Source: Amphiscolops sp. MND2022
Lineage: Eukaryota
Length of the DNA: 64,000 nucleotides
NCBI GenBank assembly: GCA_964187785.1
Contig: OZ076415.1
Location: 22,506,001-22,570,000, forward strand
Direction: 5' to 3'
This document shows positions 1-58,700 of this stretch, piece by piece (the stretch's first letter is position 1; every line of letters starts with the position of its first letter). Below the pieces are notes generated by a model, which worked only from the letters and a program-made list of their open reading frames with translations, had not been told where the DNA came from and made no database searches. A program made the translations under genes and the position numbers.

Positions 1-1163
1 AGCTTGTGATCATGTAACTAAATTGAGCACAAGTGTGAGTGAATTTAAATCTCAATCACCTGAAAAACCGAAGAAGTTCTCTGATTTTCGTCCAAAAAAA
101 AATAAAATTGTGAACCGGAACGACGGCAAAGAAAACCAAAATTTGAATCTTTTCCATGAACTATCCAGCAATTCAACCCCTTCTCACAATTATCGGATCA
201 TCTTCTCAACCAATCAAGTTCGAGGAGATTTTTAGTCGGATTGTAACTTGGCTTCATTTTGTAAAACTGACAAAAATAATTTATTTTTCAGCGTCTATTA
301 AATGGGGTTGATTTTGAAAATTCGCACAGATTTCAGTCCGAAAACTAAACGTTCCCAGTTTTTCTATATTTGCAGGGATCCATGAAAGCATTGTAACGGC
401 AAGCTGTTATCGGTCGCTTAACACGTTAACAGAGGTGGAGGAACCTGCAGAAATGGGTGAATCGCTCGGGACAGGCGCCCATCGCCACAGATCCATTTTG
501 CCTCCAGGGGTGAAATACGTCCCGGGGCCGCGGGTGCTTCGACGAATACTGTCCAACCGGTCCTAGTCTTTGATTGCTAATAGTAACGGGCATCTTTCTG
601 GCTCTCTAAAGACCACCGCTTAACTAGCATATAAAAACAATGCCAAGAATAAGGTAAGTTTCCAGTTCCAGGGTGACATGTGAATAAGATCTAAAATTGA
701 GGAATAAGATCTAAACTAGCGCTAGCGCTACTGAATAGAGCCAAAATCACTGAAAATACAGGAAAACAGGCACGAATATGGCAAACCACACAGCTAAAAA
801 GCTGGGGCGCAGGGACTCCAAGCACCAAACAAGATCTTTAGGCGAAAAGACTCATTTTTACGGTTTCCGCTACATAGGGTAGCATAATGCTGAAAATCGA
901 TAAAACCGGTGTTAGCACCTCAAAAAGAGTCTATTTTCGGATGTTCTTGCCGTCTCTGGCTTCTGTCATGGTGGCGCGCCCGTGTTTTTGCTCGTTCTTG
1001 CTCTTTGTTGTCGAAGTACCTGCCAATTTCGTGGAAACAGCGGAAAGAGCAATCACATGCTCAGTGCCACGTCACACATCGGATTAGAATTTTTGACAAA
1101 ATTTCTGAACATGTCAAAGTTGCAAAATCGGTTGATATTGCTGTACCAGAGCTTGCCGTTACA
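1..1163. repeat. Long direct repeat, copy 1 (runs off the left window edge)
   Basis: 1-1163 matches 6698-7860 at an offset of 6697, with about 4 substitutions seen by eye. Both copies end at ...AGCTTGCCGTTACA, after which the flanks diverge (tcactcc vs catggtg). Confidence 0.95.
392..1163 (-). mobile_element. 772-bp TGT...ACA unit with perfect 14-bp terminal inverted repeat (LTR-like or MITE-like), copy 1
   Basis: TGTAACGGCAAGCT at 392-405 and its reverse complement AGCTTGCCGTTACA at 1150-1163. On the minus strand a purine-rich PPT-like tract (aaagcccggggagtga) directly precedes the TGT start. Confidence 0.6.
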
Positions 1164-2290
1164 TCACTCCCCGGGCTTTATGCATGACGTCCCTGTCATG
1201 CGGAGAGGCTGGCATTGAATACATCGCCACATCATGAGTGCAATCCACGGGGGTCTCAAACTGATGTTGCAACGGTCCAGTGGCACTGTCATCTTTTGCT
1301 GATTGGGCAACCGTGAGGTCTTGCTTCTTGCCATCCAGAGAACCTGCATCGTCCAGAAACTGTTAAAACAGAGCTAGCTCGAGAGCTAGAAAACCAGTAT
1401 TCAAAAATGCACCTTGAAATTGATCAAATCCAAGATTCTATACATCAATCGAAAAAGCACCACTTTTGTAGCACGAGTTTTCTGCAAAATTCTGAATAGG
1501 ATCCTGCTAGCACTTTGGTTTTTGGACGTCTGAAATTTCTGTTACGGAGCGCTAACGCTCCAAAGCGCACGTGGTTCTCAGCAAAACATCTTTTCCACGG
1601 CAATAAAATTTCAGTTTGCAGCACAGTTAAAAGTTCTTTTCGCTAAAACTTCTTTTCAGCAGTGAAACCACTGTTTAAAAGGAAGACAAGCTGTTTCTTT
1701 GATACTTTTTTTACAGTTCGGCTTGGTTTGGGCAACACGCACTGATGTGCAGCTTCATACCTGTATAGAGTTCAGTAGCATCTGTCGAGGAGCGCATCAG
1801 AAGCAAACTACGAACTGCTCGGAAGAGTAAGCACTGGAGTAAAGCAGACAAAGGTAGATCAAATCCTGCCATTTGCAGATCAGGAGCGCGCGCGCTCCTT
1901 ATTTCTCCGGATATCACAATGGAATCTGGAGGAAACTTCTGGAAATCTTGAAAAAAAAAACAAAAATAGCACCTTTCGGGCGTTGCAATACATGTAGAGT
2001 TTTTGGGTTATTTATTGAATTAACAGAAGTATTTGAATTGAAACATCTCAAATAAAACTAAAACAAAAATGTCGCGACGTTTGTTTACATGACTACTAAA
2101 ATTAAGAAACAAAGTTGCAGAAAAAACTGCTCCAACAAGAACATCACGCTGCAAGGTATCCATTACCAAACGTAGTGATATCCTCCGGGCGTTATCCACT
2201 TGAGTTGATGAGTGTAGGGGTGTTTGTCTTCAACTGAGGCTCCCCGGGCCTTAGTTGACTCCCCGGGCCTTAGTCGTTGAGCACCCTCTT

Positions 2291-3271
2291 TCACATGAGG
2301 ATAGTGAGGAATGGACAAAATTGAATGCCTGACATAAAAATGCAGCAGGAAAGATTAAGCGTTAACGACACCTCCTTCCCCTTTGAAAGGAAGTGGAGTG
2401 TGGTTTGGACTGGATAGACATCACCATTCAATAGCAGCAGGACGTGGAACAAGCATGAAGCATCAGGAAATCCGATAAAGAAAACTGTGGAGACTGGGTC
2501 TGTCTCAAGACTGGAATAGTTGTTCGGAGGACGGCCACGCCTATGTCCCTTCGGTCAATGTGACCATGGTAGAACTTGGCGTGGTGGACGGCCACGGCGA
2601 CGTCCATCATAAAGGGACAACAGAACTTTTTGCCATGAGTGCTCAAAGTCTGTGCGCGGTGGTCGACCACGTCTATGACCAGTTGGTCGAGTTTTATCTG
2701 AACCACCAGGCAACCAATTGATAAAGACTGGCGGGTCAACCTGACTAAAATCCTGTAGCCCACGTTTAGCAGAATGTCGCTCCAAGGAGTCTTTCAGCAA
2801 ATTCGGCAGCAACTTCGTAGTTGATATTAGGGACTTTGTTCCAGGGAAGTGAGAGTTGCTTAAAGAATCATCCGATAAGGAAATGGAGGATGAGATAGAT
2901 ATTCGTTCAATCTTCGTATCACTTGAGTAGAGGTTGCGCTCGCGCAACCCATTATCACCGGCGTGATATTCAGGCAAAGTGTCAGCAACACCCATGGTTG
3001 TAGTGTCCAAAGATATTGGGTCCACCCCCATGTCTTTTGTTGGCTGTGTCAATGGTTCTGATTCGACGGCGTCTGAAATATTGATCTGCATTTGTGCTAG
3101 CGCTCGCGCTAGCGCTCGCGCTAGCAGTTTCTCCTGCCAAAGCGTGCTTTGTTCCAAAAAGTCTGAAATCTCATCCATCCAGAGTCCCGTAGTCCAGAGT
3201 GCGTCGAAGGCACGCAACACTGCTGACTTGAGCTGTTCAGGATCAAATTTCGAAGTCCCATAGGAGTCCAT
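2291..3271 (-). pseudogene. Putative AT-hook protein (3 x RRGRPP) with N-terminal H15/winged-helix-like segment, interrupted by one TGA at 2555-2557
   Basis: ORF 2555-3271 (238 aa) contains GHRRGRPPR (2654-2680) and GRRRGRPPR (2579-2605). In the same frame just past the stop lies a third GHRRGRPPN (2522-2548), and the frame stays open to a TGA at 2291-2293. Confidence 0.55.
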
Positions 3272-4439
3272 AATTTATGACTCCTGCCGGCAATTTTTTC
3301 GAACCGTGGGTTTTGCTTCGTTTGCACCCAGGAAGGTCTACTGGCCCCTTCCGTTGGAAAATGAAGGCTTTTTGGGTCTGCCTCCTGTACAGCGGAAGTA
3401 TTGAAGATTTACAATGATAGATTTTCTGGTGTTTTTTGAATTTTGTTCAAGACGTGCGTCTGAACACAGTCAAATTCAGTTTTATCAATCGTACTGGGTA
3501 CAAAATGACACAGCACAATTTGTCAGCCACACAAGTCAGAAAAATAACCTTTCGTAGCTGATAATTGCCTCCAGCTCCAAGCTAGAGCCTTTTTCACCGA
3601 TTTTTTGATTTTTCAACTGTTTTCGAAAATCACTCAGATGGCTTTTACAAGTGCTGGAAATGTGGTATCGGGCTCAGATCTGATACTGACGTTCCGTATC
3701 ACCGTGTCTCGATTGACACGATTTTTCACATGCAATCAAAGACTCTCGTCCACAGTGCTGAGCTCTCGAGCTCACTTTTTCAGCAACGGTGCACCAAATG
3801 ACACTAATAAGAATAGTCCAGGGCAATGTAATCCCAACTTCCCAATAAGGTGCGCCGATAGTTCCAAAAAATGATCCAATTCGTTACAATACACAGGATA
3901 TCACAACTTCAAGTAACAAGATGCTATGATCCAGCAAGGCAGCCCACTCGATACTGATCAAATATCACACGCACAGCAATGAACGAACTACTGGGAGTTC
4001 AAACTAGGGGTTTCCACAGGTTTCCAACACGTAGAAATGACTTTTTTCTCACTTTCCCAGTTTTCGTCTCGGTGAGACCTCTAACAGACACAATGAATAT
4101 GCACGTCCGAGAAGCGTCGAAATAAGTTCCAAGGGTTGTAGCGTGCTGGAAGGTATACAGCACTCCCGGATTGATGCACTGACCCCAAAAAGTGAGTCCA
4201 GAATCGGGGTATTAGGATCCAGTCACAGGTCAGAGATTTTTCAGGTATTTTTTGGGTTTTTCAGATTTACTTAAAAAAAACTCCAGAGGCTAGCGCTAAC
4301 GGTAGAAACGCAGGATCGGCTTCAAAATCAACCACAAAATCCCACGTATGTTGAGGTACACGGGAATAATACATGATTTGTGCTGAGATGACTAGGTGAA
4401 GTTTCAACACAGTATAGATTTTCGGTATCACTGTGTTCC

Positions 4440-5430
4440 AAGATGTACTGTTTTTCACGTGTCAACCCAGATTCTGGCGAACTGCAAAGAGCGCTCACGC
4501 TCGTTTTTTCGGCAAAAATACGATAAACTTGCACTGGTTACGATGGTGGGCAGCAATTTGGCCCCACTCTTTGAATAAGGTGTTCAGGTAATCCCACAAG
4601 ACTTCGTAGAATTCGCCTTCTTGCGCACCTTCTCGTGCAGTTTGTTTTAGTCACTTTCTCAACAGATACAGTACCAATTGACCCCAAACTTGGCAGGCGC
4701 TGCCAGTGGGCACCGACCACGCTGTTAGAATAGTAAAACAGACGCTGGTAGGCTTGCAGGGGGTCTCCTCAAGGATTTGGCCCTCTGCTCGTCTCGGTGA
4801 GGACTTAAGAAAATTGATGTTTTTCAACGTCCAAGATTTTTTAAAACACGTTCTAAGGCTCGTAGGCTGTTCAAAATTGCACCGCACTTTCCCACAAGCA
4901 CACTGGGCCAAAGAATCAACCTGGTTTAGGGCTAAAAGTCTTCAGTCACCCACAGGAAGAATTTCACAGAATTTTTGGATTTTCCAAAAATCGCACAACA
5001 ACTCTCCAGAGGCTCCTGTGTGCACTGGAAGCGCCGTATCCAGCCCAATATTGACCAGCAGATCTTAGGTACACGTAGGTTTACGAAAATGAACACAGAA
5101 TTGAGCTGCACCCCTTCTACAAAAATACACTGTACCAAAAAAATGTACCAAAATACACTGTTTTTCACGTCTTTTTCAAGATTGCGGTCCACTGGAAGGA
5201 GCTAGCAAGCTCAAAATCTCTGCAGCAACGTAGGAACTAGCACAAGTTACAATGGTGGGCTGCAATATAGCCCCACCCTTCGGCTGAGGTACCCGGGTTA
5301 CTTGGAAAAATTAAGAAAAAACTGCCTTTTTGCGCACTTTTTTGGGGGCCGCGTTTTTCCTATTTTCTCAACAAGTATCACACAAAGCGGCACCAAACTT
5401 GGTAGTTTATGCCAGTGGGCACCTACAATG
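4440..5430. repeat. Diverged internal duplication (offset about 709 bp) with GTGGG...CCCAC hairpins
   Basis: Shared blocks: actgtttttcacgt (near 4447/5157), ttacRatggtggg..caat..Rgccccac (near 4538/5247), ccaaacttgg....gccagtgggcacc (4684/5393). An inverted, further diverged hairpin copy lies near 5570-5620. Confidence 0.7.
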
Positions 5431-6697
5431 CCACTGATATGGTCGAATTGAAGCGCGAGCGCTTATTTGAGGTTTCGACCTACTATGTACGCTGTACACG
5501 AAAAAACACTGTTTTTGACGACTTTTTTCACAAATTGACCAAGAGGATCACCTCAGAAAGTGATACGGCGGGCAAAATGGGACCAACGTGTTGTCCCACT
5601 ATCCGTAGCACTGGGATAAACCCTCAATTGGTGGTGCCCACTAGGTGTAAGGCACTGACAGTCCTGCAGTTTTCGATTTTTTCGGTCCTTTTACGCTTCT
5701 CTGAAGTCGAAACGTCAGAGAGCTTTTCTCGACTTTGGTGAGCGATACGCACATCAAATTTTCGGCACTAACGTTAATTTTTGTGGTGGTTACGAAAATG
5801 CAACCACTTTTGGCTAGGGTTCAGGAATCGATGACCCGACCCTAGCTCAGAGACAGTCCGGTTTTGTGGAAAATTGATCAAATTCAGAGCGTTTTTCCAC
5901 TTTTCTCACTGAATGGGAGTTTTTACACGCAGTTTTCACCACCACGCGTTGTTTTTACTATAAAAAGAGAAAATGAGAGCGCGCGGGCTCCCAGGTCTCG
6001 AAAACACTGAGTGCCCCAGAGGTTTTAATGATGCACTTTGGCACTCCTGAAACTGGCCAAAAATCAAGGTTTTTCAACCTGTTCTCACCAAGAAAACAAT
6101 ACAAGCTCTCTTAAACCCTATTTTCGGTACTGTGGAGTGTGCCCCAAACTAATAGCAGCACGGAAGAGGCAATTACATCACAATCCAGCACTCTCCCAGT
6201 GGCATTTCGTAGTGGTTTTTTGCCAATTTCGCCAAAAACCGGGTTTTTTCATGCAAAATGTGTCTCAAAAAGGTCTCCAACGGCCTTTCTGGTTGTCGTT
6301 ACCTTATGTAGCATAACCCTCAAGGTTTTGGGCTGCTTTCTATTTATTATTGCAACTGCTGTGGCTAATACTTCGAGCGCTCGCGCTCGTACCAAGAAAA
6401 GTACTCAAAAATGCCAAAAATCACGTTTTTGCAACTTTTGCACTAAAAATCGCACTTTTTTCACTGAAAACAGGTGCAAAAGCACACACTCAGTTGCAAC
6501 AGGGTAAAACTAGCATGCACAAATGATTCCCGGTCAGAAAATACACAATCTAAATTTTTTTCATACCATACTCCAAAAAACTGATTCTGCAGATTTTCAC
6601 GGCTTCAAAAAAGCTTGTTAAAAGTCGAATACAACAAGAAGATATTTTCGCATAAACGTTTCCGCGTCGCGTTAAATTCTGTGGAGCCTAGTTCAGG

Positions 6698-7860
6698 AGC
6701 TTGTGATCATGTAACTAAATTGAGCACAAGTGTGAGTGAATTTAAATCTCAATCACCTGAAAAACCGAAGAAGTTCTCTGATTTTCGTCCAAAAAAAAAT
6801 AAAATTGTGAACCGGAACGACGGCAAAGAAAACCAAAATTTGAATCTTTTCCATGAACTATCCAGCAATTTAACCCCTTCTCACAATTATCGGATCATCT
6901 TCTCAACCAATCAAGTTCGAGGAGATTTTTAGTCGGATTGTAACTTGGCTTCATTTTGTAAAACTGACAAAAATAATTTATTTTTCAGCGTCTATTAAAT
7001 GGGGTTGATTTTGAAAATTCGCACAGATTTCAGTCCGAAAACTAAACGTTCCCAGTTTTTCTATATTTGCAGGGATCCATGAAAGCATTGTAACGGCAAG
7101 CTGTTATCGGTCGCTTAACACGTTAACAGAGGTGGAGGAACCTGCAGAAATGGGTGAATCGCTCGGGACAGGCGCCCATCGCCACAGATCCATTTTGCCT
7201 CCAGGGGTGAAATACGTCCCGGGGCCGCGGGTGCTTCGACGAATACTGTCCAACCGGTCCTAGTCTTTGATTGCTAATAGTAACGGGCATCTTTCTGGCT
7301 CTCTAAAGACCACCGCTTAACTAGCATATAAAAACAATGCCAAGAATAAGGTAAGTTTCCAGTTCCAGGGTGACATGTGAATAAGATCTAAAATTGAGGA
7401 ATAAGATCTAAACTAGCGCTAGCGCTACTGAATAGAGCCAAAATCACTGAAAATACAGGAAAACAGGCACGAATATGGCAAACCACACAGCTAAAAAGCT
7501 GGGGCGCAGGGACTCCAAGCACCAAACAAGATCTTTAGGCGAAAAGACTCATTTTTACGGTTTCCGCTACATAGGGTAGCATAATGCTGAAAATCGATAA
7601 AACCGGTGTTAGCACCTCAAAAAGAGTCTATTTTCGGATGTTCTTGCCGTCTCTGGCTTCTGTCATGGCGGCGCGCCCGTGTTTTTGCTCGTTCTTGCTC
7701 TTTGTTGTCGAAGTACCTGCCAATTCCGTGGAAACAGCGAAAAGAGCAATCACATGCTCAGTGCCACGTCACACATCGGATTAGAATTTTTGACAAAATT
7801 TCTGAACATGTCAAAGTTGCAAAATCGGTTGATATTGCTGTACCAGAGCTTGCCGTTACA
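6698..7860. repeat. Long direct repeat, copy 2 (contains 772-bp TIR unit 7089-7860)
   Basis: Match to 1-1163. In this copy the TIR unit is flanked by cat on both sides (7086-7088 and 7861-7863). Confidence 0.95.
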
Positions 7861-8156
7861 CATGGTGGCTCAATTTTTTAAAAAAATTGTTTGCTAGGTA
7901 AGCTCGTTTCAGGCCAAAATAATTTCATCTGTCACGAAAGAATGCATATCAATCTCAGAATGCACGCCGTGCCAAATTCATACAAACACGCAAGAAATGA
8001 AACACCGCTGAAACATATATTTAGATTATGTAACTACATACATACATACACCTTCATTATACTTTTATTATACTTGTGAAAAGCTCACTACAACCTTATC
8101 ACAAACTCTATTATTATTATTATAATTGAACCAATAAACTGGAATATTGAGAAATC

Positions 8157-20300: not shown

Positions 20301-23300
20301 TGTCTTTAAAGATTTTATTTATAATTATGATTGTCATGTAAGATTATTTTTCTACAACCGAGGAAAAACTGGGCGCTATTATTAGCAGTTATATAATGAT
20401 GATTTTAGGATGATTCACTAAATTTGGTTGTCGAGTAACTAAAAATATGTTCCATAAACAAGAGTAAGAAATACATTCCTTCAGTCATTCTAAAAATGTA
20501 GCCACAAAGACCAGACTTTTTTAAACCTCCTTAAAACTTGTGCAATTTCCATTAAGTTTGCTCTAATTTCTGTATTTCATCATATTCAACATTGCCTTAT
20601 GATCAACTTCCTAAACTTTGTTTCAAATCTATATTATTGCACTTTCTTTATCTTTATTTATCCTAATTAGAATTCATCAATTCACTTTGACTGATCATGA
20701 GAAACAAAATAATCACAAGATCTAGAATGGGACAACCGCCCACGTTTTAACAATAGAGATAAGTGCTTCAGAAGCAGAAGCGTCACAAGGTAGTATGACT
20801 GTTACTGACCCTCTTAGTTACTTGGAGCAGTTAAATCAGCTGAGACCGAGAAGCAGACTTAAAGGAATTTGCACAAACTGAAAATGAGATTTGATAAAAG
20901 AAATGATAGAAAAAATACAGAGAATGATGCAAAAAATCAAGAGTGACAAAAACACACGATCACTCTCAAATAGGAAGAATTATGAGCACATTACATCGCA
21001 AATGGAAACGCCTAGTTTTGCACTGTACAAGGACGGTCAAATAAATGCATTCAATACGGATAATCAACAGGATAATTCTTTTAGACCCTTGGAGTTTAGT
21101 GATCTTAGCTCGCCGTTCAACCTGTGATTACTCTAAATTTCCATCTGGATGACACCGTAATTATAAATGAGGATCGTACAGGATATAAATGGTATCAGGG
21201 TTGATGTAAATAGTGTTCGTTCATGTAGATTGACTCTTTTGCTTTCGAATTTCCGCACGAAATTGTAATCACATTGAGATATCTTGCATGATACGGGGTG
21301 TGGTAGAGCACTTGTTGTACAGCTTGATAAAACAAAAGTGTGAAAATAATTAATTACACTATTTATTAACAACCTGTCAAAAATAGTAAAAGTGGCAAAA
21401 GAAAACAATCTGCCAATACAGACAGTTACGCCATACAATACAGTTTCTCACACTTCACCTTCTTTCGTATATCGAGTTCTTCAGCCTATTCAGCTAGACT
21501 ATAACATGGCGCTGCGCGCTGATGAAGATCATTCAAATTCCCCACTACCAGGACTGAATTACTTCTGGCAGGATGCTGAAAAGCCCCCTGGATACGACTG
21601 GGAGCAATGGATCCAATTGTTCGAGGTCGCAACATTGGCAAGACACTCAATCTCAGTGTCCGAAGTGTTAAGGGAGGCTGACCAACAGAATCCACGTGCG
21701 GCGGCTTTGATGGGAAATTTAGAAGAAATCCCTGCAAAAAGGAAAGTCGTAAGTCTACTCTACATCTCAATTGGTAAAAATGCAAGAAAAATGCTGATGG
21801 ACAAGTTCCCACGAATAAACACTCTACTGATCGAACTTCGGGAACTTATGCAAAATTGCGCAGAATGCTTCCAAATTCGACGTAACCGGACATTAGATCG
21901 TCACACGTTTCCTTCGAGAAAACAGAAACCGGCGGAGACACTAAATCAATTCTGGAATGCATTAAACGGACTCGCGGCGAGATGCAATTTCGGTGACCAA
22001 ACAGAAAGTCTAGTTCACGACATATTTGTTCTAAATATGGCAAATAAACAAGTGCAAGAAAAGCTTTGCACAGAACCGAAAGAAACGCCAGCTGAAGCTC
22101 TACAATTTGCGATAGCTTTTGAGGACGGGCTAAAACGCCAAAAATCGTATGGGTATATCAATCAAGAGCCCAAAGTAAAAGAAGAACCTATTTGCGCGAT
22201 TAGTAGCAACAACAACACAAGAGAATGCTGGAGATGCGGTGCGGGTAATTTTACCCTAGATCACTTGAAACGATGCAAGGCACCCGAAGCAATGTGTAAC
22301 TACTGCGGGCGAAAAGGCCATTTAGAACGAGTCTGCAATCAGAAGAAAAAGGACACTTACCCGAAAAATGGCAAACCCAGAAGATTTGGCAACAGATTGC
22401 AGTTGGTGGATCAGGAGGAAAGCGACAATGAAGACGAAGATAACTACATGGTGCTAAATGTTGAAGGAAACGAAAATGATTCAAAACCATTTTATATGGA
22501 AGGATTCATTAACGGCAACCGTTTCAAAACCATGATAGACACGGGTTCTCCTGTAACAATTTTCGGTCTGGACGAAATAAAATCAATCATGAAGAGGAAG
22601 GAGTTGCCAGTGCGGAAGATGATAGAAGGCGAGCGATACGTGGATTTCAATGGAAAACCACTGAAATTGCTGGGATATGTCTTTTGTGAACTACAGGTGA
22701 ATGACAGCTACATCAAAAAGGCGAGAATCCTAATTGCCCGAAGTGGATCAAAGTCGATAATTGGCAGAGAATGGCAAACAACACTCCGATACAAGCTACA
22801 ACCGCAAAAGGGTGAGTTAGAAGTAAATTCGATAGAGAAGAAAAGTGAACTAAGCGTAGAAACTAAGCAACTAGTCGCAGAATTTCCCGAACTATTCAGA
22901 AGGCAAGGTAAAGTAAATAATTACAAAATTAAAATAAACTTGAAGTCAGAAGCGGAAGTAAGTCAACAAAAAGGGAGACGAATCCCAATCCAACTGCAAA
23001 AAGCAGTGGATGAAGAAATTAGCCGTTTACTAAAGGAAGGTCATATCGAAAAAATTGACGAAATAAAGGATGACGTATTCATTCAGCCAACAGTCATCAC
23101 GGTCAAAAAGGACCGTTCAGTGAAAATTGCATTAGACGCCAGAGCGCTGAACAAAGCGATCGATAAAGATAGATACCAAATGCCAAATTTGGATAATTTA
23201 TTAGTTATGGTCGCAGAAAAATTGGATACCGAAGAAGGCGAAGCGTGGTTTTCATCAGTCGATATGACCTACGCATACAGCCAAGTCCCCTTACATCAAT

Positions 23301-26300
23301 TAACAGCAAAACATTGCAATTTCCAGATAATTGGTGGAGAATCCACTGGAACGTATCGATTCGTAACAGGTTTTTACGGTCTGTCGGTTATGCCAACAGA
23401 ATTTCAAAAAGTAATGGATAATTTATTAGCAAAGTTTAGAGAAGTGTTCGTATTCATTGATGACATTTTAATTGTAACTAAGGGAACAAAGCAAAACCAC
23501 ATAGAGAAAGTGCGGGAAATCCTAAAGACATTGGACGCGCCAAAATTACAGCTAAAGGCAGAAAAGTGTAATGTGGCAAAACAAGAAATTGAGTGGTTGG
23601 GGTTTAAATTGACAAGCAACAGAATTTCGCCGGTAAATTCAAAAGTACAAGGAATTACAGAAAAACTACGACCGACAAATTTGAAAGAACTACGGTCATT
23701 CCTTGGCGAAAAAAATCAATTTAACAAATTTATTCCCGATCTGGCGGCAATTTGCTTTTCATTTAGGTCCATATTAAAGAAAGACGCGATATGGAACTGG
23801 ACGGAAGAACATGAAAAAGCGTTTAAAAAAGTAAACGACGAAGTGAAAAAAGTAGCCGAGTTAACACATTTCAAAGAAATAAACCCCTTAGAATTATATG
23901 TGATGCGAGCAAACAAGGCTTGGGAGCTGTTTTACAGCAATGCGAAGAAAACAAATGGAAACCAATAGCATATGCGTCTAGATTTTTAACTGAATTGGAG
24001 TGTAAATATTCAATTAATGAGTTAGAACTATTGGCGGTAGTATGGTCAATAGAACATTTTAAAAATTACGTTTACGGAGTCGCATTCGGAATAGTGTCAG
24101 ACCATAAAGCCTTGCAAAGTGTGTTAAAATCAAACAAAAGTAACAAAACATTTTCCAGTAGGTTAACTAGATGAGTGGATAGGCTTTTACCCTTCGAAGT
24201 CTCAATTGTACATACCCCGGGAAGAACGCTAGGAATGGCGGATTACCTGTCACGGCATCCGTCAGAATACGAAAGATCGGTAGCAAAAGCGGAAGAATTA
24301 TTCAACGATTGGTTTACGGTGAATGTAGTCAAAAAGATTACGCCAGAAATGAAGCAATTGGCAGATCGGCGTAAGCCAATCAAATCGCAGGAAAATAAGA
24401 AAGTTCAGCATACGCAAGCAAACAAAGTTTTGTCAATTCAAGCGCATATGCAAATAGACAGCAAAATTGAAAGCGAGAAAGCAGTTGACAAACAATTAAT
24501 TGAAATGGCAGAAGCCAAAGATTTGACAAAATCGAAAATTAGCTCGGTCTACGTAAAAGCGATTGCTGAAAACGATCGGACAATTCAAAAAGTAATCAAT
24601 CTCGTCTTAAACAAAAACACAGCCGTAATTGCTCGATTACCCCCACCGTGGAGGGAAAAATTTAATTCCTTTTCTGTGGATTCAAACGGTCTTTTATATA
24701 TGGACCATCGCCTCGTTATCCCCAAAGATATGCGGGAGAATATGCTCCGGGCCATACATTTTGGCCACGCAGGACGTGACGCAATGCTGAGGGAGGCCTC
24801 AGACGTCTGGTGGCCTCGCATCCATAGAGAAATTATCGACAAGGCGAGAAATTGTAGCGAATGCCGAGAAGCAGGTAAGAATTTCAAGTGTATAAAATCT
24901 CAAAAAGAATTCGGAAAGTTACCACAGGCAAATCAGCCGAATGAGGAAGTTTCTCTTGATTTTGCCGGCCCCTTCCAAAACGCCAATTTAAAGAAAAAAA
25001 TACTTACTCGTATCAGTAGACAATCACTCGGGATGGCCGGATGCGCTATTTTTACCGAATCCCACGGCAGATAAGGTTATCGAATTTTTAGTAGAGTACA
25101 TATCAAAAAACGATATACCAAAAAGAATCCGAACAGACCCCGGAACCGCATTCAAAAGTGAAAAGTTCAAAACATTTTGTAAAGAAAAACTGATCGAACA
25201 TGTCATTTGCCCGGTAAGAGACCACCGGGGGAACGGAAAAGTGGAACGAATGATTAGAACAATAAATGAAAGGCTAAGAACGAACAGAAAAATATTAATC
25301 TCAAAAGACAAAAACGGCATTTCAAACATCTTGTTCGCATTAAGATCAGAAAAAGGACCAGATGGTAAATCTGCATTTGAAAAACAAAATGGAAGAAAAC
25401 CAAATACGGAAAAATCACGAATGATAGAAAAATGTATTTTAGAACAAGACCCACAAATCGAAATAGAACCCGAAGATTTTAGCGAAGAGGCAGACTCAAC
25501 TATCTTGGTCAGGGAGAGAGTCAGAGGGACCAAGCTAGAAGGCGCCTTCAAAAAGGTAAAGGGAAAGATTGTGGGAGAGTCAAGCCACACCATTACTGTT
25601 TTACCTAAAACAGGCCATCAAGTTATTTATTCAAAAAGAGACGTGGCAGCAGGAAGTAAGCTAGCAAGTCCAAGCAAGAAGGCAAACGCGAACAAAATGG
25701 CAAGTGGTAAAAGAGAAGCAAGCGAGACAAAAGAGGCAAAATCGAACAAAGTGGCGAAGAAGCTAAAAACAGCAATAGGCCAAGAGATGGGAATTAGCCA
25801 CCAAAAACAAGTTGAAGAAAACAAACCAAAACATCATGAAGAAGAAGAAAAAACAACAACAGCCTGTGAAGGAAGAACAGGACAACGAAGAAAGCATGAC
25901 CCACAAGGATCAAGAAGAACAAACCGCAACTGCAAACAGTGAAAACGAAACAAAAAGTGCCGAAAAGTCAACTCTGGAATCTACGCCAATCCAAGGCACA
26001 GTGAAATGGGAGAAATCCTGAACATCGTCCAGAGTAACAAAAAAGCCCGATAGATGGGGCAACAATGTCATGATAGCAAAGATCGAACCAGACTCTGCCA
26101 ATGAAGAAGAAAGCCTCCCCAGTGTGATGGAAATTCCGAACCCGAAGGAAAAACTGGCACAGAAAGCCGAAAACTTTTAAAAACAAACATTATCGTACTA
26201 ATCTTTTAAATACAGTTGGTTCTACTATTCAAATCAATAGGTTGTTCTTTTAGTTAAACTAGCCAAAATTGTACCCTTGAGCTAGTCGTTGCTTTTGTGT

Positions 26301-29300
26301 TTAATTTATAAACTGAGTGTGAGTACCATTAACTCTATGGCGCTATTTTGGAATTCTTGAAGTACTTTGTAAATCGTTCCCCCTTCACCTCCTATTCTAG
26401 AGAGGGGAGTGTGGTAGAGCACTTGTTGTACAGCTTGATAAAACAAAAGTGTGAAAATATTTAATTACACTATTTATTAACAACCTGTCAAAAATAGTAA
26501 AAGTGGCAAAAGAAAACAATCTGCCAATACAGACAGTTACGCCATACAATACAGTTTCTCACACTTCACCTTCTTTCGTATATCGAGTTCTTCAGCCTAT
26601 TCAGCTAGACTATAACACGGGGAATATAAACGTTCTGGGAAATATACAGATAAAACCCGTGGCTTTTGTTGCGTTTTCATTCGCTTGGAACGTCGAGACT
26701 GATTCTTCCTTAAAGTTCAATTCCCAGTTCAGTTCGGACTAGAACATGGCAAGATCTTGAAACAAATTCACAAATTCGGTGGCCATAGTCCTGGCCGTTA
26801 GCAGATTTCCTGATCGATGTTCGAAAAAAACGTCCAAAAACTAATTTATCGAATCAACCGCCTGATTGCGTAAGCAACGGAAAATATTATTGTATCATTA
26901 TGAAAAGTTATCTTAGGCCGAGATCTTCAAACATCTTACCAAGCAGAGATCTCATAAACGAGGGCCCCCAAGTCTAATGGGAGCATTTTTTCAGTGTGTC
27001 GCATTTGGGGAGCCTACGGTTAATAAGGTGACAACGGATAATTTGAGATCCCATATAGCACTTGATTGAAAACCCAGATTTGATCTACAATTGATGGGGA
27101 AATTAAGCTTGGTGATTTTTAATGGTATCAATTAAATTGATTTTTTACTATTCAGACTCATTTTTAGGCTTAAGCAGAACCCAGGTTGACCCTCTTACTA
27201 GCATCTTGGCTGTCTTGGCAAGATCTTTCCAAATTCTTACTACATCTTGGCAACCATGGATCCCATGGCAAGATTCTTATTAAGATTTTACTAAGATAAT
27301 ACATTATTCCAAGATCGTATCTTATCACGATGGACAGAATTCTAAGAATATAAAAAACACTATTTCTTCAGTACAAGCAGCCGAAACTCAATCTGAATGC
27401 TCATTTCACCCAACAACGACTATTTCTACCCGTTTTATTATCAAAATGCTTAAACCCGCTGAAAAATTTTTGCATGCAAAAATGCGTGAAAAATTACGAT
27501 AACGTATTCTGGCTTCCGAAATTTTGACGAAAATCCTAATAACTGCTCACGTGTTTAAGACTGGGAAATGCGAATGCACCAAATGAAAGCTCATTTCGAG
27601 GGCTTTCCAAAACTTGTAATTCATTACTCCTGTCTATTCCAGAGACGGAGAAAACTGCTCTGAAACGTCCAGAGCCACTATCGGAAAGTTACATAGGAAA
27701 CACCTAAAAATCCGGAAATTTTTGTGAAATCATATCTCTAGCTATCTTTCAGCAGCCTTATTACTGCTAGAAACGGCGGTCATTGCCCCAGTTTGGGTAA
27801 TGATTCGGCTCGAGGCTTATCTGACGACGTTGCTAGCGACAGTTTTGCAAGTGATAGAACAATGAAATCAGCGCATCCCTAAACAAAAAGCATATGGACT
27901 CTTCAATCAAGTTTTATAACTTGCTAACAGAAATTTTAATGTCTAACAATATAAATCTGCAAAAATGTTGATTTCTCTTGATAAGATCTTACCATGACAT
28001 CTTGCAATTCTTGGCAAGATCTTGCCAAGATCTTGGAAAAATCTTAGCTAAGATCTTGGCAAGATCTTGGAAAAATCTTAGCTAAGATCTTGCCAAGATC
28101 TTACTAAGATATCCATGGAGGGTCAACCCGGTAACTGATTATAGGAACTACGTGATAAGAGTATGTTTATTGAACTTGTTAAAATGAGTCCATTAAAAGT
28201 GATAGTAAATATTGCCTCTAAAACTATGCTGAAACGATTCTATTCAGTAGTGACTTTTAAGAATACTGAACAAGACGGGAACGATTAAAGTCGGCGCTAT
28301 ATCTAATTCTCAAAAAGCGCAGTTTTAAAATATGCGTAGGACGGTTTCATGAAAAACTCCTGTTTTCGAATCTCCACCTCCTCCCTAATAAAACGGAATA
28401 TAGTTCGGATATAACGTCAAAAGTTCGGGTATATCTCTTCTCTTCGAATATTAAGTAAAAAATTCGTATAGTATTGAAAAACACTTATTGAATATATATT
28501 GACAAAACCTAATACCACTCAAAAATGAGAATTTTGAAATAGTCTCATAGTGCCGAAAAATCTGAAAGAAGACCCTTTCGGATTTTTTAACATCCATTTT
28601 GTTGCAAAACATCAAAAAAAACTGGAAATGGGGGACTTTTTAGTCTCGTCTGGTTTTGTGGGTTACGTTAAAGGGCGACTAAGTTTCTACTAAGTTTTCT
28701 ACACTAAGTTTCTACTGGCCGGACTTGGCCTTAGTAGTTTTGGTAGTTACTGTAAAAAGTGGAACTTTCCGAGTGAGGTCTGTGGTCTTGGGAAAAAAGG
28801 TCACTGTAAAAAAGCGCGGTTTCACAAAAAGCGCCTACTAAAAAGAAGGTTAATATAAAATTTATTGGGCACATTTTTGGGAAAATTGAACAAAACAGGT
28901 TGGAAACGTAATAAAGGAAACCGGTTGAAGGTTTCAAAAATAACATAAAAAGGAGTAATTTGTAATGACGTCATACTTCATTCAGGTTGAGTGGAACTTG
29001 GACTGCAGTCTGATCGGAGTGCTGTGCAGAAGTGACACTCATGAGAGGGGCACTGACTTGTACGTAGTCACCCTAGAGACTGAATTCAGTGCCCTCCGCA
29101 TTCTCTCCTTCCCCTCTCCCACAACCACCCTCGTGTGGAGCAACAACAAAAACGACCTCCTTGGTGAGTGGGCCACTGTTTCGAAATATTTTGGGTTGTG
29201 CACAAAAAACCACAACCCACCCCATCTAAAAAAGTGTCAGACCTCATGGGTTCCTGGATAATGTCCTTCTGATTCGTAGTGGAGGTATTGTACCGAAATT

Positions 29301-51167: not shown

Positions 51168-52856
51168 TCACGAAGCAGCTACTTGGGCAGCAGAAAGCTT
51201 TCTCATCATTCCAGTCGTGCTTCTGATCGGAACCAAATTCGGCACAACCTCTGGCACGTATTTAGAGAGAGCACTGGACCCAGTTCTGGCAGCGCCAGTG
51301 TATAACTCTGGAACTATATCCGGAGTCCTTGGCAACCGGATATGGCGCATCAAGCTAGTCTGATCGTTTCCGCCAAACTTTTCCCGGAATTCGTCCGTTT
51401 TAGGGTGAGCTCTGTCGTGGATCTGAAGACCATGTGGATGCTTTCTGACGTCATAGTTCCCTATATTAGGGTCGCTTTTTTCCCGCCTTATGAAAGGTCG
51501 CAACTGGACCATCCTCCTTTTGGGGTCATTTTCGGAGATCTGTTCTTCAGTCATTGAAATTAACCTGCTCTGGCGTTTAAGCATTTCATAGTCATTTATT
51601 TCTGTGTTTATATTATCATCGTTATATTGATGCTTGCCACAGTACCACGCAACCGCCTGTCCATTCGGTTTAGTTAGAACCGTGATACATTCCAGCCCAT
51701 AGCCACATTTGAACTGGTTTTTCCATATATAGTCATACGGTGGAAAGTCCCGTGCTTCCGGAACCGAGCATGCCCAAATGTTCAACTTACAACCGGCTGG
51801 TAACTTGGCACGGATAGGAAACCGGAAGGAAGCAACTGTTTTCCCGCCAATTTTCTGCTGCAGAACGTATAACCCAATTAGTTCATCTGTATCCGGACTC
51901 GCGTTTCTCAATGTAATGAAGTTTCCTTCTTTGTGGATGTTGTCTATTCTCAAACTTCCAATTGAGCTTGTAACAAATCCATTGGTCAGAAGCATTTGAT
52001 TGGCCAAAGTCAGAAATTTGGGTTCGTTGAACATCTCTTCGAAAAAATCTTCACCTGTGCCCAAAGTTTTTGTCACATGGGCGGAAGAATGTCTAGAAGC
52101 TACGGAAATATTTTGGCTCTTTTTTCGCTCTTTAATTGAATCTTCTGTCATCTTGTCAGCTTTTGCCTTCTCTATGTGATATTCGCTCACAATTTGCTGC
52201 AACTTTGAAATTTTGTCTTGTTCTATTTCCAACTGCTCTTTCAGAAGATCGATTTGACTTGAAAGTGAGAGTTTTTCACCTTCAAACAAACTTTTCATTC
52301 TCTCGATTCTTTGCTCGAAATTGGGAACTTCTAATTCGGCAACTACGGGATGTGGGTCTTCAACTGGTTCATGGTTTTGCTCATCTTCAGCGGCATCTTC
52401 GGTCTCATTCTCAAGGTCCGGGTTTGAATCATCCACGGGTCTCTTTTTTCTCAGTTTGATACTCAAGTCTTTGGCGCAGTTTTCAGCTTTGTGACGTAAT
52501 ATTTGTTCCTCTTGGTACAAATCGGAAAGTTCCAGACATTTTTGTCGTTGGTCCTCGCAATTGGATTCCAGTTGTGCTATTCTGGAAAGATGTTTTTCTC
52601 TATCGGCTAGCAAATCATTGATATCAGAGACATACTTATCGTTGAAAGTATCAAGCTTTTGCAATAATCGCGACACTCGATTTTCCCAGACTCGTTCCGA
52701 TTCAGAACTTGGCAAATTTGGGTCGTCTGCGCTGGTTTTTAAAGAATTGGCTTTAGTTCTGACTTGTGCAATCAATTCTTTAAGCATGCTTTTACTTTCA
52801 AGTCTGTGTAAGTATACACCACCCAAATTTCTCTCTGGGTAATTTTCAGTCGCCAT
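51168..52856 (-). CDS. Intronless coiled-coil plus lamin-tail-domain protein (LMNTD1/IFLTD1-like), 562 aa from MATENY
   Basis: Single open frame (ORF track 51168-52955; first ATG at 52856). Heptad- and charge-rich N-terminal half. LTD at about 51640-51970: GSLRIDNIHKEGNFITLRN...YVLQQKIGG..VASFRFP...AG..LNIWA...PPYDYIWKNQ..G.G.EC.TVL.KPNGQ.VAWY. No CaaX (ends QVAAS). Confidence 0.85.
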   Translation of the reverse strand: MATENYPERNLGGVYLHRLESKSMLKELIAQVRTKANSLKTSADDPNLPSSESERVWENRVSRLLQKLDTFNDKYVSDINDLLADREKHLSRIAQLESNCEDQRQKCLELSDLYQEEQILRHKAENCAKDLSIKLRKKRPVDDSNPDLENETEDAAEDEQNHEPVEDPHPVVAELEVPNFEQRIERMKSLFEGEKLSLSSQIDLLKEQLEIEQDKISKLQQIVSEYHIEKAKADKMTEDSIKERKKSQNISVASRHSSAHVTKTLGTGEDFFEEMFNEPKFLTLANQMLLTNGFVTSSIGSLRIDNIHKEGNFITLRNASPDTDELIGLYVLQQKIGGKTVASFRFPIRAKLPAGCKLNIWACSVPEARDFPPYDYIWKNQFKCGYGLECITVLTKPNGQAVAWYCGKHQYNDDNINTEINDYEMLKRQSRLISMTEEQISENDPKRRMVQLRPFIRREKSDPNIGNYDVRKHPHGLQIHDRAHPKTDEFREKFGGNDQTSLMRHIRLPRTPDIVPELYTGAARTGSSALSKYVPEVVPNLVPIRSTTGMMRKLSAAQVAAS

Positions 52857-55778
52857 TTTCTTCGTCCTTGACAACCAATATGATGACAAAAACACGCAGA
52901 TTCCAACTAATTGTAAACAAACAAAAAGTAACAAAATACGAACAAATAACTGCAAAAATACTTGGTTTCGATTAATTAATGATGCATTGTCTCGACGGTT
53001 TTAGCAACCGTAAAGATGTGGTGTTTGGATAGCTTCAAAAGCTGCGTTGTTTAGAAATGACTACAATTTGTATTTTTGTCTGCGTGAAAAATGTGAACGC
53101 TGTTTCAGTCAATGAGAATGATAAAAACACGCACGTCTCTTTTTTTTCTGCTTCAATCTGCTTCAATCTGCTCCAAGCTTCAGCAGCGGCGCCGTTGGCC
53201 AAAAACTACAAACACCAAGAAAAAATTTTTCGTAAGCTAAGTTTTTAAGGCGAGTTTCGGCCGTATAAATTCACATTTTGCGTGAGTAGCATTAATTTTT
53301 TATACTTTGAAAGACGAGCTAAAATAGTGTATTTGAATAAAGAATAAAATTATTGTCTTTTCATACAATGATGTTCGAGCCAAACGTATATGATGTGTAC
53401 CAACTGAATTTTTATTCCTTCTCGAATTAAAAGCTTCAATAAAATTATGATATCTTATTCTGTGCGATATTTCTGTGCACAGAAAAATATTAAATAATAC
53501 TAATTTATTTGAGAGGGCTTATGAACGTGCGGGCGAAAAACTCAACTTTAAGTGTCTCCAAAGTAAACCTCTTCAATTCAATTTAAAGACATCAATTTTG
53601 TTAAATTCGGCACTTGTTGTTTTTAACCGATGAAAGTGTACTAGAGCTATCATCGGGACTGCTAGTTTAATTCGTTTCGAGAACTTTCATATCACGTTTA
53701 TCCACTTGATCTTTTGATTGAACCAATTAAGCAACTTGGGTTTATCAAGCAGAGGTTCAACCGCTCAGTCGAGTATGCGACCTCTTTAACAAAAACTGAA
53801 GTATCAACGATGCTGCGATTCAAACACTTCTGCAGAGAGTTATGAGCAAATTGTTCCATTTTTGAAGCTGTTCCTTGCAATTAGAGCATTCAAAAAAATT
53901 GTTTTTGATTCAATTAAATTAGCGATTCTTTGAACATAAAAGTTTAAAACCGATCGTAATTTCTTTTTCGACCCCAATTAGGATTTCCAGTCAAACTCCA
54001 CTCCAATTAACGTTTGACATCGCATGTCGACTGACCTCGTCAAAAAACACAGAAACAGCAGCTTTTTGTGATTTTTATGCTCGTTGGTATGATTTTTGAA
54101 AGTCTTATGCGTAACAAGATAGAGTTGAAAACATGACTATTACTTAGCGTATTTTTGGTGCAGAGAAGTACAGTTTTTTAGAGAAAGGTCTAGAAAAATC
54201 AAGCCTCAAGTCGGGGCCCACTCTAAGGCTCAAAAGCGCAAAGTTTTCAAAACATGCTTGGGTTTTTTATGAAATACTCGCAAAAAAGTGTCGAAGCACC
54301 CAAATGGTGCTTTTTATGCTCAAAAAACACTTCGAACATTCGAACGTAGCGTGCTGGGCTACATGGGAGCGCTTTTTTCGAATCTAGGCCTCCACTTTAT
54401 TAAAACACATTTTATTTCGGATATAACGTCAAAATTCGGATATAGATTGCTGGGAGCAATGGAAGCGCTTGTTTTTGAACCTCCGTCGCCTCCTCGCTGA
54501 AACGCAGCCTTCTTCGAAAATATTGTCAAGAATTTTGATAGTACTGAACAAAGTATTGGTGGATATAAAAAGAGAAAACCTAACTTCAGACCAAAAATGA
54601 GAATTTTGAAACAGTCTCATAGTGCCAGAAAAATGTAAAAAGGGGACCTCTCAGAGACAAAAAAGATTTTTGAAAAAAGTGTCAGTGCCGAAAAAAATTG
54701 AACGGGGTGACCCTGTGGTCCCGTCCGGTTTTGTATGTTACGTGAAAAAGGGCGAAATGTAAGGGGGATCCTTTGCACTAACTTATATCGATGCGTTTCC
54801 CAGATATTTTTAGTTGAACAAACTGAACTAAAATTTCGTCACATTCGAGCCTATCTTCAAGAAAAACAAACAAGCCGGGAACGGCCCAAGTCGGCTTTGT
54901 ATCTAAGGTTCCAAAATAGCAAAAAGACTTCAAAGTGTCAAGTATTCTCTTCTAAAATACCCGGAAAATCCAAAACTTGCCCAAAAGTCACCCTAATATA
55001 CCCAACCGCATTGGCGCGCCCTTTTGGAGTTTTTAACAGCCATTCTGTTGCAAAATATCAAAAACAATGAAGGGGGACCCTTTGAAGCAGAGAAAATTTC
55101 AAAAAAAGTCGCATAGTGCCGAAAAAAATCGAGAAAGGGGACCTTCAGGACTCGGACCTGTGACCGCTGGATTCCACGCAAATCGATTAAAATCTGTACA
55201 AAAAAGTGGTACATACAGGGTGAGGTCTGTGGTCTGACGAAAAAAACTAGCCACTGTATTAGTCGGGCACATTTCACTCGAAAAGCGGCGCGACCAAAAA
55301 CGCGAGTTACTGTAAAAGAAAGTGTAATTGTTCCATGTGTCTCTATCAGCAATTATTGAGAAAATACTGGACGGTTTTGTTATTACGAGTCTCCACATAA
55401 TTTTGTACAAAAACCGTCGTCTACTGATTATATTCTCAATTTAAAAAGTTTCATGAATGTTTCAAAAGGGACAGAAATAATCAAAGGATGTCAGAAATCT
55501 CAAATTTCGACTGTTCCTTGCAATTTTTCGAACAATGTTCTGACGTTTTTTGGTGTAAAAGGTGTTAAACGGTTGTACTGTTATAACTTTTGCATTTGCA
55601 TAACTCTTTATATTTTAGGTCAATATTTCTCGACATCTACAACTCTCAGCACAAGTAGCAATCATTAGACATTTGAATGATAGGGTTTGGAAAAATACTT
55701 GAGCAAATTTTTGAAATTCTTTCAAAGCCTACATTTGACTGAGGAACATTTCCCGAAGTAAATTCCCATTTTGGGCCA

Positions 55779-58700
55779 TGTAGTAGAGCGATGAATTGAT
55801 TCAGACAATATGTATGTAAACAAGTACTAGTAACATTGTCTAACTCTAACATTTACTACGCCTCAGTGCGTTCAAGCCTAAGTTCAAAAGACAGTTTGTT
55901 AAAAGTCTAAATTCATCATCAATTCACATCTACCCCTCAATTCTTTTCATTCTAATTGAGTTCCACGTCAACATGGCGCTGCGAGCTGAAAATTCTAAGG
56001 CGTCATCTTCTTCATCGTCACATCTTGCTGGACTGCCAGTGTTCTGGAGCGATGCGACCACGAACCCTACGATGGAATGGGACAAGTGGTTCGATCTCTT
56101 CCAAGTTGCCATGATTGCAAAATATTCCATCTCAATCTCCGAGTTGACACGTGAGACGACACAGCAAAATCCCAGGGTTCGTACGTTGTTGGGGGACTTT
56201 GATGAAGATCCTGCAAATAAGAAAGCTATTAGTATTCTGTACTTGTCATTGGGTGATGCGGCGAGGAAGCAATTCATGGATAAGTATCCGCATAAAGCCC
56301 TGTGGGATTTGAAAGCCCTAGAATTAATCAACTTATGCATCGACTGCTTCCGAAAGAAGCGGAACCGAACCCTCGACAGACATCGATTTTTCTCCAGACT
56401 CCAACAGCCCGGCGAAACCCTATTTCAATTCTGGCACGCCTTAAACGGATTAGCAGCTTTATGTGATTTAGGGGAAATAACTTCGACCCTAGTTTTGGAT
56501 ATGTTCATTCTTCACATGAATAGTAAGAAGGTGCAAGAAAAGTTGTGCACGGAAACTAAGGAGCCCGACCAAGCACTGGAACTTGCCATTGCTTTTGAAG
56601 AAGGAGTGAAGCGACAGAAGGCGTACGGCACACAAGCACCCGAACCAACAAAGTCGGTCGTGAAAGGCGAACCGGTCTATGCGATAGATAAAACTAACCC
56701 CCGGGAGTGTTATAGATGTGGGGCAGCAAACTTCACGATGAAACACGTCAACTTCTGCATGGCTACCAATCATCGTTGTAAATTCTGTAAAATTGTGGGG
56801 CATGTAGAAAAATGATGCAATAAGAAGTTTCCTCAGAGACAGAAAGAGATGATGCAGCGACTGAAGAATCGCGATAACGAAAAAAGTATGCGAAGAGTAA
56901 ACTACATCGAAGAGTCAGATGAGGAATCTGAAGAAGACGACGAAGAGCAACTAGTATTACGTGTGGATGGTGATGGCTGCAAACCGTTCTATATGGAAGG
57001 AACAATGTGTGGCAATTATTTTAAAGCAATTATTGACACTGGGTCACCAGTTTTCATTTTTACAAAACGGGACTTTCAGAAAATTGTGGGGGAACGAAAA
57101 GTTGTGATCAGGGATATGATTGAAGGAGAACGCTACATTGATTACAATAAAAAGCCCTTGGAATTACTTGGCTACCAATTCGTACGACTCGAGGTCGCAG
57201 GAGTAACGGTGTCAAAAGCCCGAGTCCTCATAGCACCTAATTCAGGAAAATCAATCGTGGGCCGTGATTGGCTAGTTGCTCTCCGCTACAAAATTACGCA
57301 GTCGATAGAAAGAGGTGAGTGTAAACTAAATAAACAATTTGTAATTTGTAAAGAATCAGTCTGTGAGATAAGTCCCGAGAAAAACAAAATCCCCAGGTTC
57401 AGTAATTAGTGAGGGAATTTCAAAAAACGTTCTGTCGAAAAAGACGTGTGAAGAATTACGAAAATAAAATTAAAATGAAAAACGATGCGAAAATTACCCA
57501 ACAGAAGGGACGCCGAGTGCCAATTCAGCTACAAAATCAAGTAGATAAAGAGATTGACAAACTATTAAAAGAGGGACATTTTGAGAAAGTTGATAAAATC
57601 CAAGATGATGTGTTTATTCAGCCAACAGTAATAACCGTCAAAAAGGACAAGTCCGTGAAAATTGCCTTAGACGCGAGAGCGTTAAACCAATCTATAGCAA
57701 AAGACAAATACCAAATGCCTAACCTAGATAAATTTAATCGACATGATTGCAGAGAAGTTAGATGAAAAAGAAGGGGAGGCATGGTATTCGTCAGTAGATA
57801 TGACTTATGCTTACGGACAAATCCCGTTACAAGAATTAACAAAAAGGCATTGCAATTTCCAAATTGTAGGGGGAAAATCTACAGGCACTTATCGATTTAC
57901 AACGGGATTTTATGGCCTTACAGTAATGCCAACAGAATTTCAAAAGTTAATGGACATCACTTTGGCAAATGTAAATAGTGTATTTGTGTATATAGACGAC
58001 ATATTGATTGTAACTAAAGGAACCAAGCAGGATCATTTGAACAAAGTGAGAGAAATAAAGAAAATTCTGGACGAAGCGAATTTGCAGTTGAAGGCAGAAA
58101 AATGCATAATAGCACAAGAAAGCATAGAATGGTTGGGGTTCAAACTAACAAGAACGGGCATTTCCCCAATCAATGCAAAAGCCCAGGGAATAAGCGATAG
58201 ATTGAGACCGACAAATTTGAAACAATTACGCTCATTTCTCGGAGCAGTTAACCAATTCAACAAATTCATACCTAATTTGGCAAGTATCAGTTTTCCATTT
58301 AGATCAATTCTGAAAAAGGACGCGGACTGGATATGGAATGCCGAGCATGAAAAGGCGTTTGTGAAAATTAATGACGAAATTAAAGAAGTAGTAGAATTGT
58401 CTCATTTTAAAAGAAACCAAGAAATTAGAATCATTTGCGATGCAAGCAAACAAGGCTTAGGCGCAGTCTTACAACAAAGTCAAACCAAAGGGGAGTGGAG
58501 ACCAATCTGCTTCGCTTCTAGGTTTTTATCGGATTTTGAGTCAAAATATTCTATAAATGAATTAGAGTTATTAGCAATTGTGTGGGCGGTAGAACATTTT
58601 GAAAATTATGTATGTGGTGTACTTTTTAAAATAATTTCTGATCACAAAGCATTAATGTCTGTACTAAAGCCAAATAGGGGAAACAAAACATTTTCCAGTA

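Follow-up and report, generated by a model that had tools for sequence, protein, structure and literature searches.

Non-autonomous LTR elements with Gag remnants and LTR elements with accessory ORFs of unknown origin are already known, as stated in the accessible portions of PMC13570524 and PMC7264820, respectively. TR-GAG and other gag-keeping non-autonomous elements resemble the element reported here in having LTRs, a primer site and a purine tract, and in the loss of the enzymes; their single ORF also takes the place of gag, and a helper mobilises them (accessible text of PMC13570524). Those elements are from plants, while our host is an animal; moreover, capsid and zinc knuckle are gone here and only the N-terminal leader appears to be kept, fused to AT-hook-like motifs that seem to be under selection. 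A TR-GAG has a Gag ORF that includes the capsid region; in our ORF the homology stops at the capsid start. LARDs are likewise over 4 kb long, non-autonomous and present in high copy, but in the available part of PMC13570524 they are described as non-coding, whereas the ORF studied here is apparently in part under purifying selection. Finally, Grande gene23 and the additional ORFs of RIRE2 and Retand, as presented in the accessible part of PMC7264820, encode an element-borne accessory protein with a proposed regulatory role, as here; in those plant elements the ORF lies beside an intact gag-pol and is often antisense, whereas ours is in sense, replaces gag-pol and seems traceable to it.

By analogy, any likeness in working of the protein encoded by our ORF would be to a multi-hook binder of the HMGA type. 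Its length is three to four times that of animal HMGA; plant GH1-HMGA proteins likewise have G-R-P cores with basic flanks, together with a GH1 globular domain. HMGA1 shares with it three G-R-P cores, basic flanks and a disordered chain (PMC4615771, in the part available). Differently from HMGA1 and GH1-HMGA, the ORF lacks a globular GH1 domain and has Pro-Pro after the cores; no sequence relation was found, nor any HMGA homology beyond the core motif in the PDB (under E 0.2), in the Atlas or among the listed matches that were inspected. A further parallel is offered by LEDGF/p75 and the Ty5 tails, in which AT-hooks or a post-integrase tail reach chromatin (PMC4176367, in its accessible part); unlike there, the hooks are here encoded by the element, both in the pol tail of a helper and in a stand-alone derivative without integrase. 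The features tested place the ORF outside GH1, HMGA, TR-GAG and LARD, and a capsid-less Gag leader fused to hooks was not found in the literature searched on AT-hooks with LTR elements and on deleted gag-bearing elements, which covered few subscription papers.

The carrier element

The ORF lies in a stretch of 64,000 nucleotides of Amphiscolops sp. MND2022 (contig OZ076415.1), which was analysed as a whole and is called here the window. A preliminary description, made from the letters alone, had proposed that the ORF is carried by a mobile element, and an LTR element was in fact found around it:

392..7860, minus strand: whole non-autonomous LTR element, 7469 bp, without capsid, protease, RT, RNase H and integrase
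7089..7860, minus strand: 5' LTR, 772 bp, with TG...CA ends and 3 differences from the 3' LTR
6587..7088, no strand: 502 bp that repeat the outer flank of the 3' LTR, occupying the primer-binding-site position of other copies
3272..6586, minus strand: long 5' internal leader, mostly common to helper elements, without a long ORF
1164..1175, minus strand: purine-rich tract ahead of the 3' LTR, identical in other copies
392..1163, minus strand: 3' LTR, 772 bp
389..391, no strand: 3-bp target-site duplication, partner of 7861-7863
7861..7863, no strand: 3-bp target-site duplication, partner of 389-391

Paired TG...CA LTRs, primer site, purine tract and target duplication, by which a non-autonomous LTR element is recognised, were all found in the family, and the element has no gene besides the ORF. 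Of 17 further copies fetched with their flanks, those resolved measure 7.6-9.4 kb and have LTR pairs with 96-100% identity, so that the family is young. In the window copy, the duplicate at 6587-7088, 99.8% identical to the true flank, may be due to conversion, rearrangement or an assembly artefact; as it stands in for the primer-binding site, this copy is likely immobile. A tandem satellite was also considered and rejected: the 6.7-kb repeat seen at first is the LTR pair with the duplicated flank.

Elsewhere in the window, 21295-26620 and 55779-60958 are occupied by Ty3/Gypsy elements of an ordinary kind, unrelated to the family, each with a broken pol and LTRs that measure about 200 bp, and part of the latter is duplicated, with 98.9% identity, at 62169-64000. 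An uninterrupted frame of 610 codons with a coiled coil occupies 51168-53000 on the minus strand; it has no Pfam match at E<=0.1, and one region of it resembles a lamin-tail domain.

The primer site of the family, which begins about 10-19 nt inside the element and not at the LTR end (L097-L126), has 2,000 exact 21-mer and 3,473 14-mer matches in the genome. Of the first 41 matches on contig 1, all but a known open copy of the ORF were retrieved. In this position-ordered sample of 40, 27 loci contained gag or pol, one was a gag-pol/ORF chimera, six had the ORF with hooks and no pol (three of them fully open), one had the front part of the ORF, and five showed neither gag/pol nor ORF inside 10 kb. 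The sample suggests that copies of the ORF number hundreds in the genome; a first look had given 1,022-2,090 candidates.

The ORF and its three AT-hook-like motifs

The ORF of the window is a 326-codon frame running from 3271 to 2291 on the minus strand, and the three RRGRPP motifs that the preliminary description had placed in one frame were confirmed at codons 200-205, 225-230 and 244-249:

2291..3271, minus strand: ORF, 326 codons, broken at 2555-2557 in the window copy
2657..2674, minus strand: AT-hook-like motif 1
2582..2599, minus strand: AT-hook-like motif 2
2525..2542, minus strand: AT-hook-like motif 3, beyond the stop in the window copy

Two or more RGRP were obtained in 0 of 20,000 codon shuffles of the ORF, and chance is excluded as the source of the repeats. 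As defined in the accessible part of PMC4615771, an AT-hook is a G-R-P core with flanking basic residues. All three RRGRPP have such a core and basic flank, with an Arg following two of them. The Pfam AT_hook model PF02178 found no match in the ORF at E<=1, and the hook of the helper reached 11.5 bits with it, below the cut-off of 17.4; the name AT-hook-like is therefore given to the motifs solely for the G-R-P core and its basic flank.

The third motif had been reported to lie just past a stop that was taken for a lesion of this copy, and this was borne out. The sole in-frame stop of the window ORF (2555-2557, codon 239) is present in 2 of 60 close copies, and in 41 of them a single open frame links the upstream part to all three RGRP cores; these 60 are the best-scoring 30 from each of two genome searches, a choice biased toward intact copies. 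The stop is a lesion of single copies and is not fixed.

In other subfamilies the ORF measures from 376 to about 470 codons, its N-termini and tails varying freely in frame and length across copies. Of 394 protein matches to the ORF, the 120 listed are all unnamed ENA proteins with 65-95% identity. Older, decayed relatives (L212-L231, P0223, P0230) have just two hooks, which suggests that the middle hook is a later addition. An Env-like ORF was considered and discarded: the hydrophobic tail shifts frame between subfamilies, with dN/dS of 1.35-1.7, and the Leu/Thr run that opens the long frames precedes the first conserved Met.

Origin of the front part

Three stretches of the front part are relevant to its origin:

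3189..3271, minus strand: codons 1-28, upstream leader DNA, deletion-joined in the window subfamily; first helix of the preliminary description
3086..3178, minus strand: codons 32-62, part of a long predicted coiled-coil helix of the Gag leader; second and third helices of the preliminary description
2894..3058, minus strand: codons 72-126, end of the Gag leader, 55% identical to the stretch that directly precedes the capsid region in the gag-pol element L256

A long form of the ORF (P0053) aligns at aa 24-258 with the N-terminus of the gag-pol element L256, with 38% identity over 237 aa (E 4e-32), and the match of the window ORF at aa 72-126 extends over 55 aa (E 4e-13). L256 continues into capsid and pol, and the match to the ORF ends where the capsid region begins. 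All 8 comparisons with distant helpers gave collinear matches, with z 2.8-7.7. When 1.8 billion representatives were searched with a profile, 186 matches were obtained, and the 38 inspected were all family members or Gag leaders; one Gag-leader match (P0196) runs into the capsid start, and the Gag-leader lineage from this search is present in the source genome. An HMM of the ORF searched against the distant helpers alone gave at best 9.8 bits, equalled by 1 of 20 shuffles and not significant, and significance was reached only after closer Gag leaders had been found; the coil-to-coil profile match was weak (E 0.002), and Pfam revealed no Gag family in the ORF. The ORF occupies the gag start position of the closest helpers, and its long forms retain the Gag start region. 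On the basis of these alignments, the front part of the ORF very probably derives from the N-terminal Gag leader of the helper lineage.

The preliminary description had instead assigned an H15/GH1 winged helix to aa 10-75, on account of a three-helix spacing, and a GH1-HMGA layout to the protein, and had pointed to Pfam and AlphaFold/Foldseek as checks; neither assignment was confirmed. No Pfam family matched the window ORF or the open copy L002 at E<=1, PF00538 and PF02178 included, although the PF00538 model finds 14 loci in the same genome with 36-86 bits; compared with two of these linker-histone loci, the window ORF gave no match (best E 30). The GH1/H15 of linker histones is a contiguous basic domain, in which three helices and a beta-hairpin wing form one compact fold, and aa 1-75 of the ORF are acidic, with 6 K/R vs 12 D/E. 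For the 326-aa form, AlphaFold predicted three helices at aa 11-60 and no strand, in a model of low confidence (pLDDT 44.7); Foldseek gave no match to it at E<=0.001, VIA-align no linker histone among the 50 rows listed (best Z 5.1, to generic three-helix chains), the PDB sequences no match to the ORF under E 0.2, and the ESM Atlas none. As far as sequence comparison and models can tell, the three-helix pattern is explained by the subfamilies with longer proteins (376 to about 470 aa). In these long forms the DNA of codons 1-28 lies about 870 nt upstream of the rest, to which it is joined by deletion in the window subfamily, and the other two helices fall in the middle of a single predicted helix of 68 residues (127-194, pLDDT 85-90). 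Of the idea of an element spreading an H1/HMGA-like protein, the spread of a three-hook protein holds, and the captured chromatin gene does not: no sign of one was seen, and the parts that could be traced point to the element's own Ty3/Gypsy relatives.

Origin of the hook part and of the tail

A short motif upstream of the hooks served as anchor:

2789..2863, minus strand: codons 137-161, anchor motif, with its best match in the helper polyprotein 63-96 aa before the helper's own hook

Among 76 related long-tailed pol proteins, 60 have RGRP or GRPP within 650 aa past the integrase core; in the helpers it is found about 370-480 aa behind the core, and the more distant proteins listed are without it. 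With the hook-free anchor (25 aa, located 60 aa before hook 1), the linker ranked first in six of seven gag-pol proteins and second in the other, the anchor having been chosen after the likeness was noticed and the helpers compared being related to one another. Direct alignments of the hook half to helpers gave z 0.8-5.0, those of subfamily B to 11 non-chimeric helpers z from -1.1 to 3.0, and the profile match of the hook half had an E of 0.004-0.047. These data, weaker than those for the front part, indicate that the hooks probably derive from the hook-bearing linker behind the integrase of the helper. A derivation of the tail from the end of pol was dropped (profile E 0.55); in L151 and L162 the tail of the ORF matches untranslated DNA directly past the pol stop.

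The helper lineage

The helper belongs to Ty3/Gypsy by its domain order, protease, RT, RNase H, integrase (L133, L252). Helper elements reach 18 kb and have the same primer site and the same 3-bp target duplication as the non-autonomous element, and these two shared features tie the parasite to the helper. Exact 3-bp duplications were found at 17 of 17 resolved elements, and none of 4 or 5 bp, in a count made by one script on 33 elements, 16 of which were without resolved ends and the window copy being among the 17. The same duplication is present at the helper L131 (18,075 bp, with identical LTRs) and at the copies L266 and L270, and is not seen at L264. To our knowledge, a 3-bp target duplication is unusual for LTR elements, and no case was found in the literature searched, outside which most subscription papers fall. 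The available text of PMC10741241 names 3-bp duplications for CACTA and PIF/Harbinger.

Giant helpers (L133+L168, L145+L170, L131+L167) have a gag-pol of 3,200-3,300 aa and a second sense ORF of 1,430-1,550 aa without Pfam match. In one of them (L168:3-2225), the integrase core is followed by a tail of about 900 aa, in which the hook linker and a CxxC-x-x-C-x-C cluster precede a terminal region that has no Pfam match and may be macrodomain-like. An autonomous subfamily is chimeric (L252:3570-12725, L254, L162, L151), with about 3,050 aa and without the second ORF. In the open gag-pol of these chimeric helpers, about 300 aa from the start of the long ORF come first and a second Gag leader next, and the hooks of the ORF are lost. 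Parasite and helper appear to exchange modules in both directions.

Selection on the protein

The preliminary description had asked for dN/dS among copies and had named neutral substitution patterns as counting against its reading. Among the 60 close copies dN/dS was about 1.0-1.1 in every frequency class, and between subfamilies the whole-region values were 0.61 for A-B, 0.63 for B-C and 0.98 for A-C (1.0-1.1 in a separate estimate). Coil and leader (0.62-0.87) and anchor and spacer (0.73-1.84) gave no significant deviation; among shared insertions and deletions, those in multiples of three were 7 of 19 inside the ORF, against 6 of 38 upstream and 20 of 88 downstream, in a noisy alignment. 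Most of the protein outside the hooks drifts near neutrality.

The hooks behave differently. The test was performed on 27 hook-core codons, a region named beforehand, in subfamilies A, B and C, the frame filter being passed by 50 of 60, 8 of 25 and 3 of 4 copies, respectively. Silent and replacement changes were 6 and 0 for A-B (p 0.001), 6 and 1 for B-C (p 0.006), and 3 and 1 for A-C (p 0.10); the three comparisons share branches, are not independent and rely on small numbers, subfamily B was found with an ORF-derived protein, and C consists of 3-5 copies from the position-ordered sample. When copies chosen and aligned by DNA alone are compared without the filter (20 of A, all 25 of B, 5 of C), the majority residue is the same at every RRGRPP position. 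No majority stop occurs in any subfamily, where 3.8-7.2 were expected per pair. Over most of the protein dN/dS is near 1, and the proposed selection on the hooks is supported by their silent-biased codons. Since the silent sites of the hooks change at the background rate, the constraint appears to act at the level of the protein and not of the RNA and, as A, B and C are all without pol, it would have acted in the non-autonomous state. There are good grounds, from sequence comparison, to consider the protein as made and selected.

Possible role of the protein and alternative explanations

The reading that we favour, with moderate confidence, is that a Gag leader and the hooks of the post-integrase linker were fused into a cis-acting adaptor protein of a non-autonomous, Ty3/Gypsy-derived element. 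In the simplest history, a single in-frame deletion in gag-pol would have taken out capsid, protease, RT, RNase H and integrase, and a later duplication would have raised the hooks to three. Since the ORF sits at the gag start and the Gag start region is retained, translation like that of Gag is expected, and the protein is predicted to be made from the gag position. Its coil would dock on the Gag leader of the helper and its hooks would grip the element's own RNA or cDNA, by which the parasite would be packaged or integrated more often; this mechanism is put forward tentatively. Selection for a protein in a multicopy retroelement is kept most easily if the protein favours its own RNA. Besides DNA, several AT-hooks are able to bind RNA (available part of PMC4615771), and these two arguments together favour the adaptor. 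On the other hand, the sequence outside the hooks is near neutral, where a docking coil should be more constrained, and N-termini and tails are free to vary in frame and length. An extended version, which we regard as rather speculative, is a hijack protein built from both ends of the helper polyprotein, with the Gag-leader coil entering the particle and the amplified hooks loading the parasite genome, in a giant Gypsy lineage with 3-bp duplications and an AT-hook tail on its integrase that swaps modules with the parasite.

The main rival to the adaptor is a nuclear role, similar to that of LEDGF or of integrase tails, for a protein of the same origin: a coiled-coil dimer, with its AT-hooks on A/T tracts of LTR and leader or on chromatin, would boost transcription, resist silencing or tether integration in an HMGA- or LEDGF-like manner. 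The hooks are the only clearly selected part, those of the helper are located behind the integrase, and minor-groove DNA binding is the classic activity of AT-hooks (PMC4615771, accessible part); in the portion available of PMC4176367, the AT-hooks of LEDGF hold integrase on chromatin, and C-terminal integrase tails steer Ty5. We nevertheless consider this role unlikely, because it leaves unexplained the retention of the Gag leader in every hook-bearing subfamily and because, as a general argument, a freely diffusing factor is hard to keep selected among hundreds of copies.

The frame could also stay open since translation itself helps the RNA, through stability, export or delivery to assembly sites, the basic motifs being a localisation signal or a ribosome contact without any partner. 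This would fit the absence of fixed stops in a protein that has, for the most part, a dN/dS near 1, as well as the many different in-frame N-termini, but zero replacements in three G-R-P cores, prolines included, alongside silent changes at the background rate, are stricter than a basic signal needs, and the explanation is improbable. Still less credit is given to a dead gag-pol remnant under neutral drift, with openness and hook conservation produced by chance and by the choice of copies. An overall dN/dS of 0.98-1.1, for A-C and for close copies, and the fact that only half of the hook-bearing position-ordered copies (3 of 6) are fully open would agree with it; it is opposed by the hook test (p 0.001, region named beforehand), by the absence of a majority stop in any subfamily, by the derivation of subfamily C from the position-ordered sample and not from a protein search, and by the fast decay that CpG-rich hooks should undergo. 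The capture of a plant-type GH1-HMGA or linker-histone gene, which could invoke the three hooks and the three helices (aa 11-60) of the 326-aa model, is practically dismissed, being refuted by the Gag-leader homology and by the deletion that joined the foreign DNA of helix 1, and further opposed by the missing PF00538 match where that model finds 14 loci, the missing match to two of these (best E 30), the acidic aa 1-75 (6 K/R vs 12 D/E), the absence of a strand and the single helix of the long form.

Implications

Element-encoded AT-hooks behind an integrase, together with exact 3-bp target duplications, bear on the geometry of this integrase. LTR finders set to target duplications of 4-6 bp would overlook this family, although its primer site has over 3,000 matches in the genome. 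Non-autonomous LTR elements are usually seen as passive RNA passengers or as keepers of the capsid; the loss of the capsid, while short nucleic-acid-binding motifs appear to have been selected, points to an active, protein-based exploitation of the helper, for which the coil and the hooks would represent a small, testable module.
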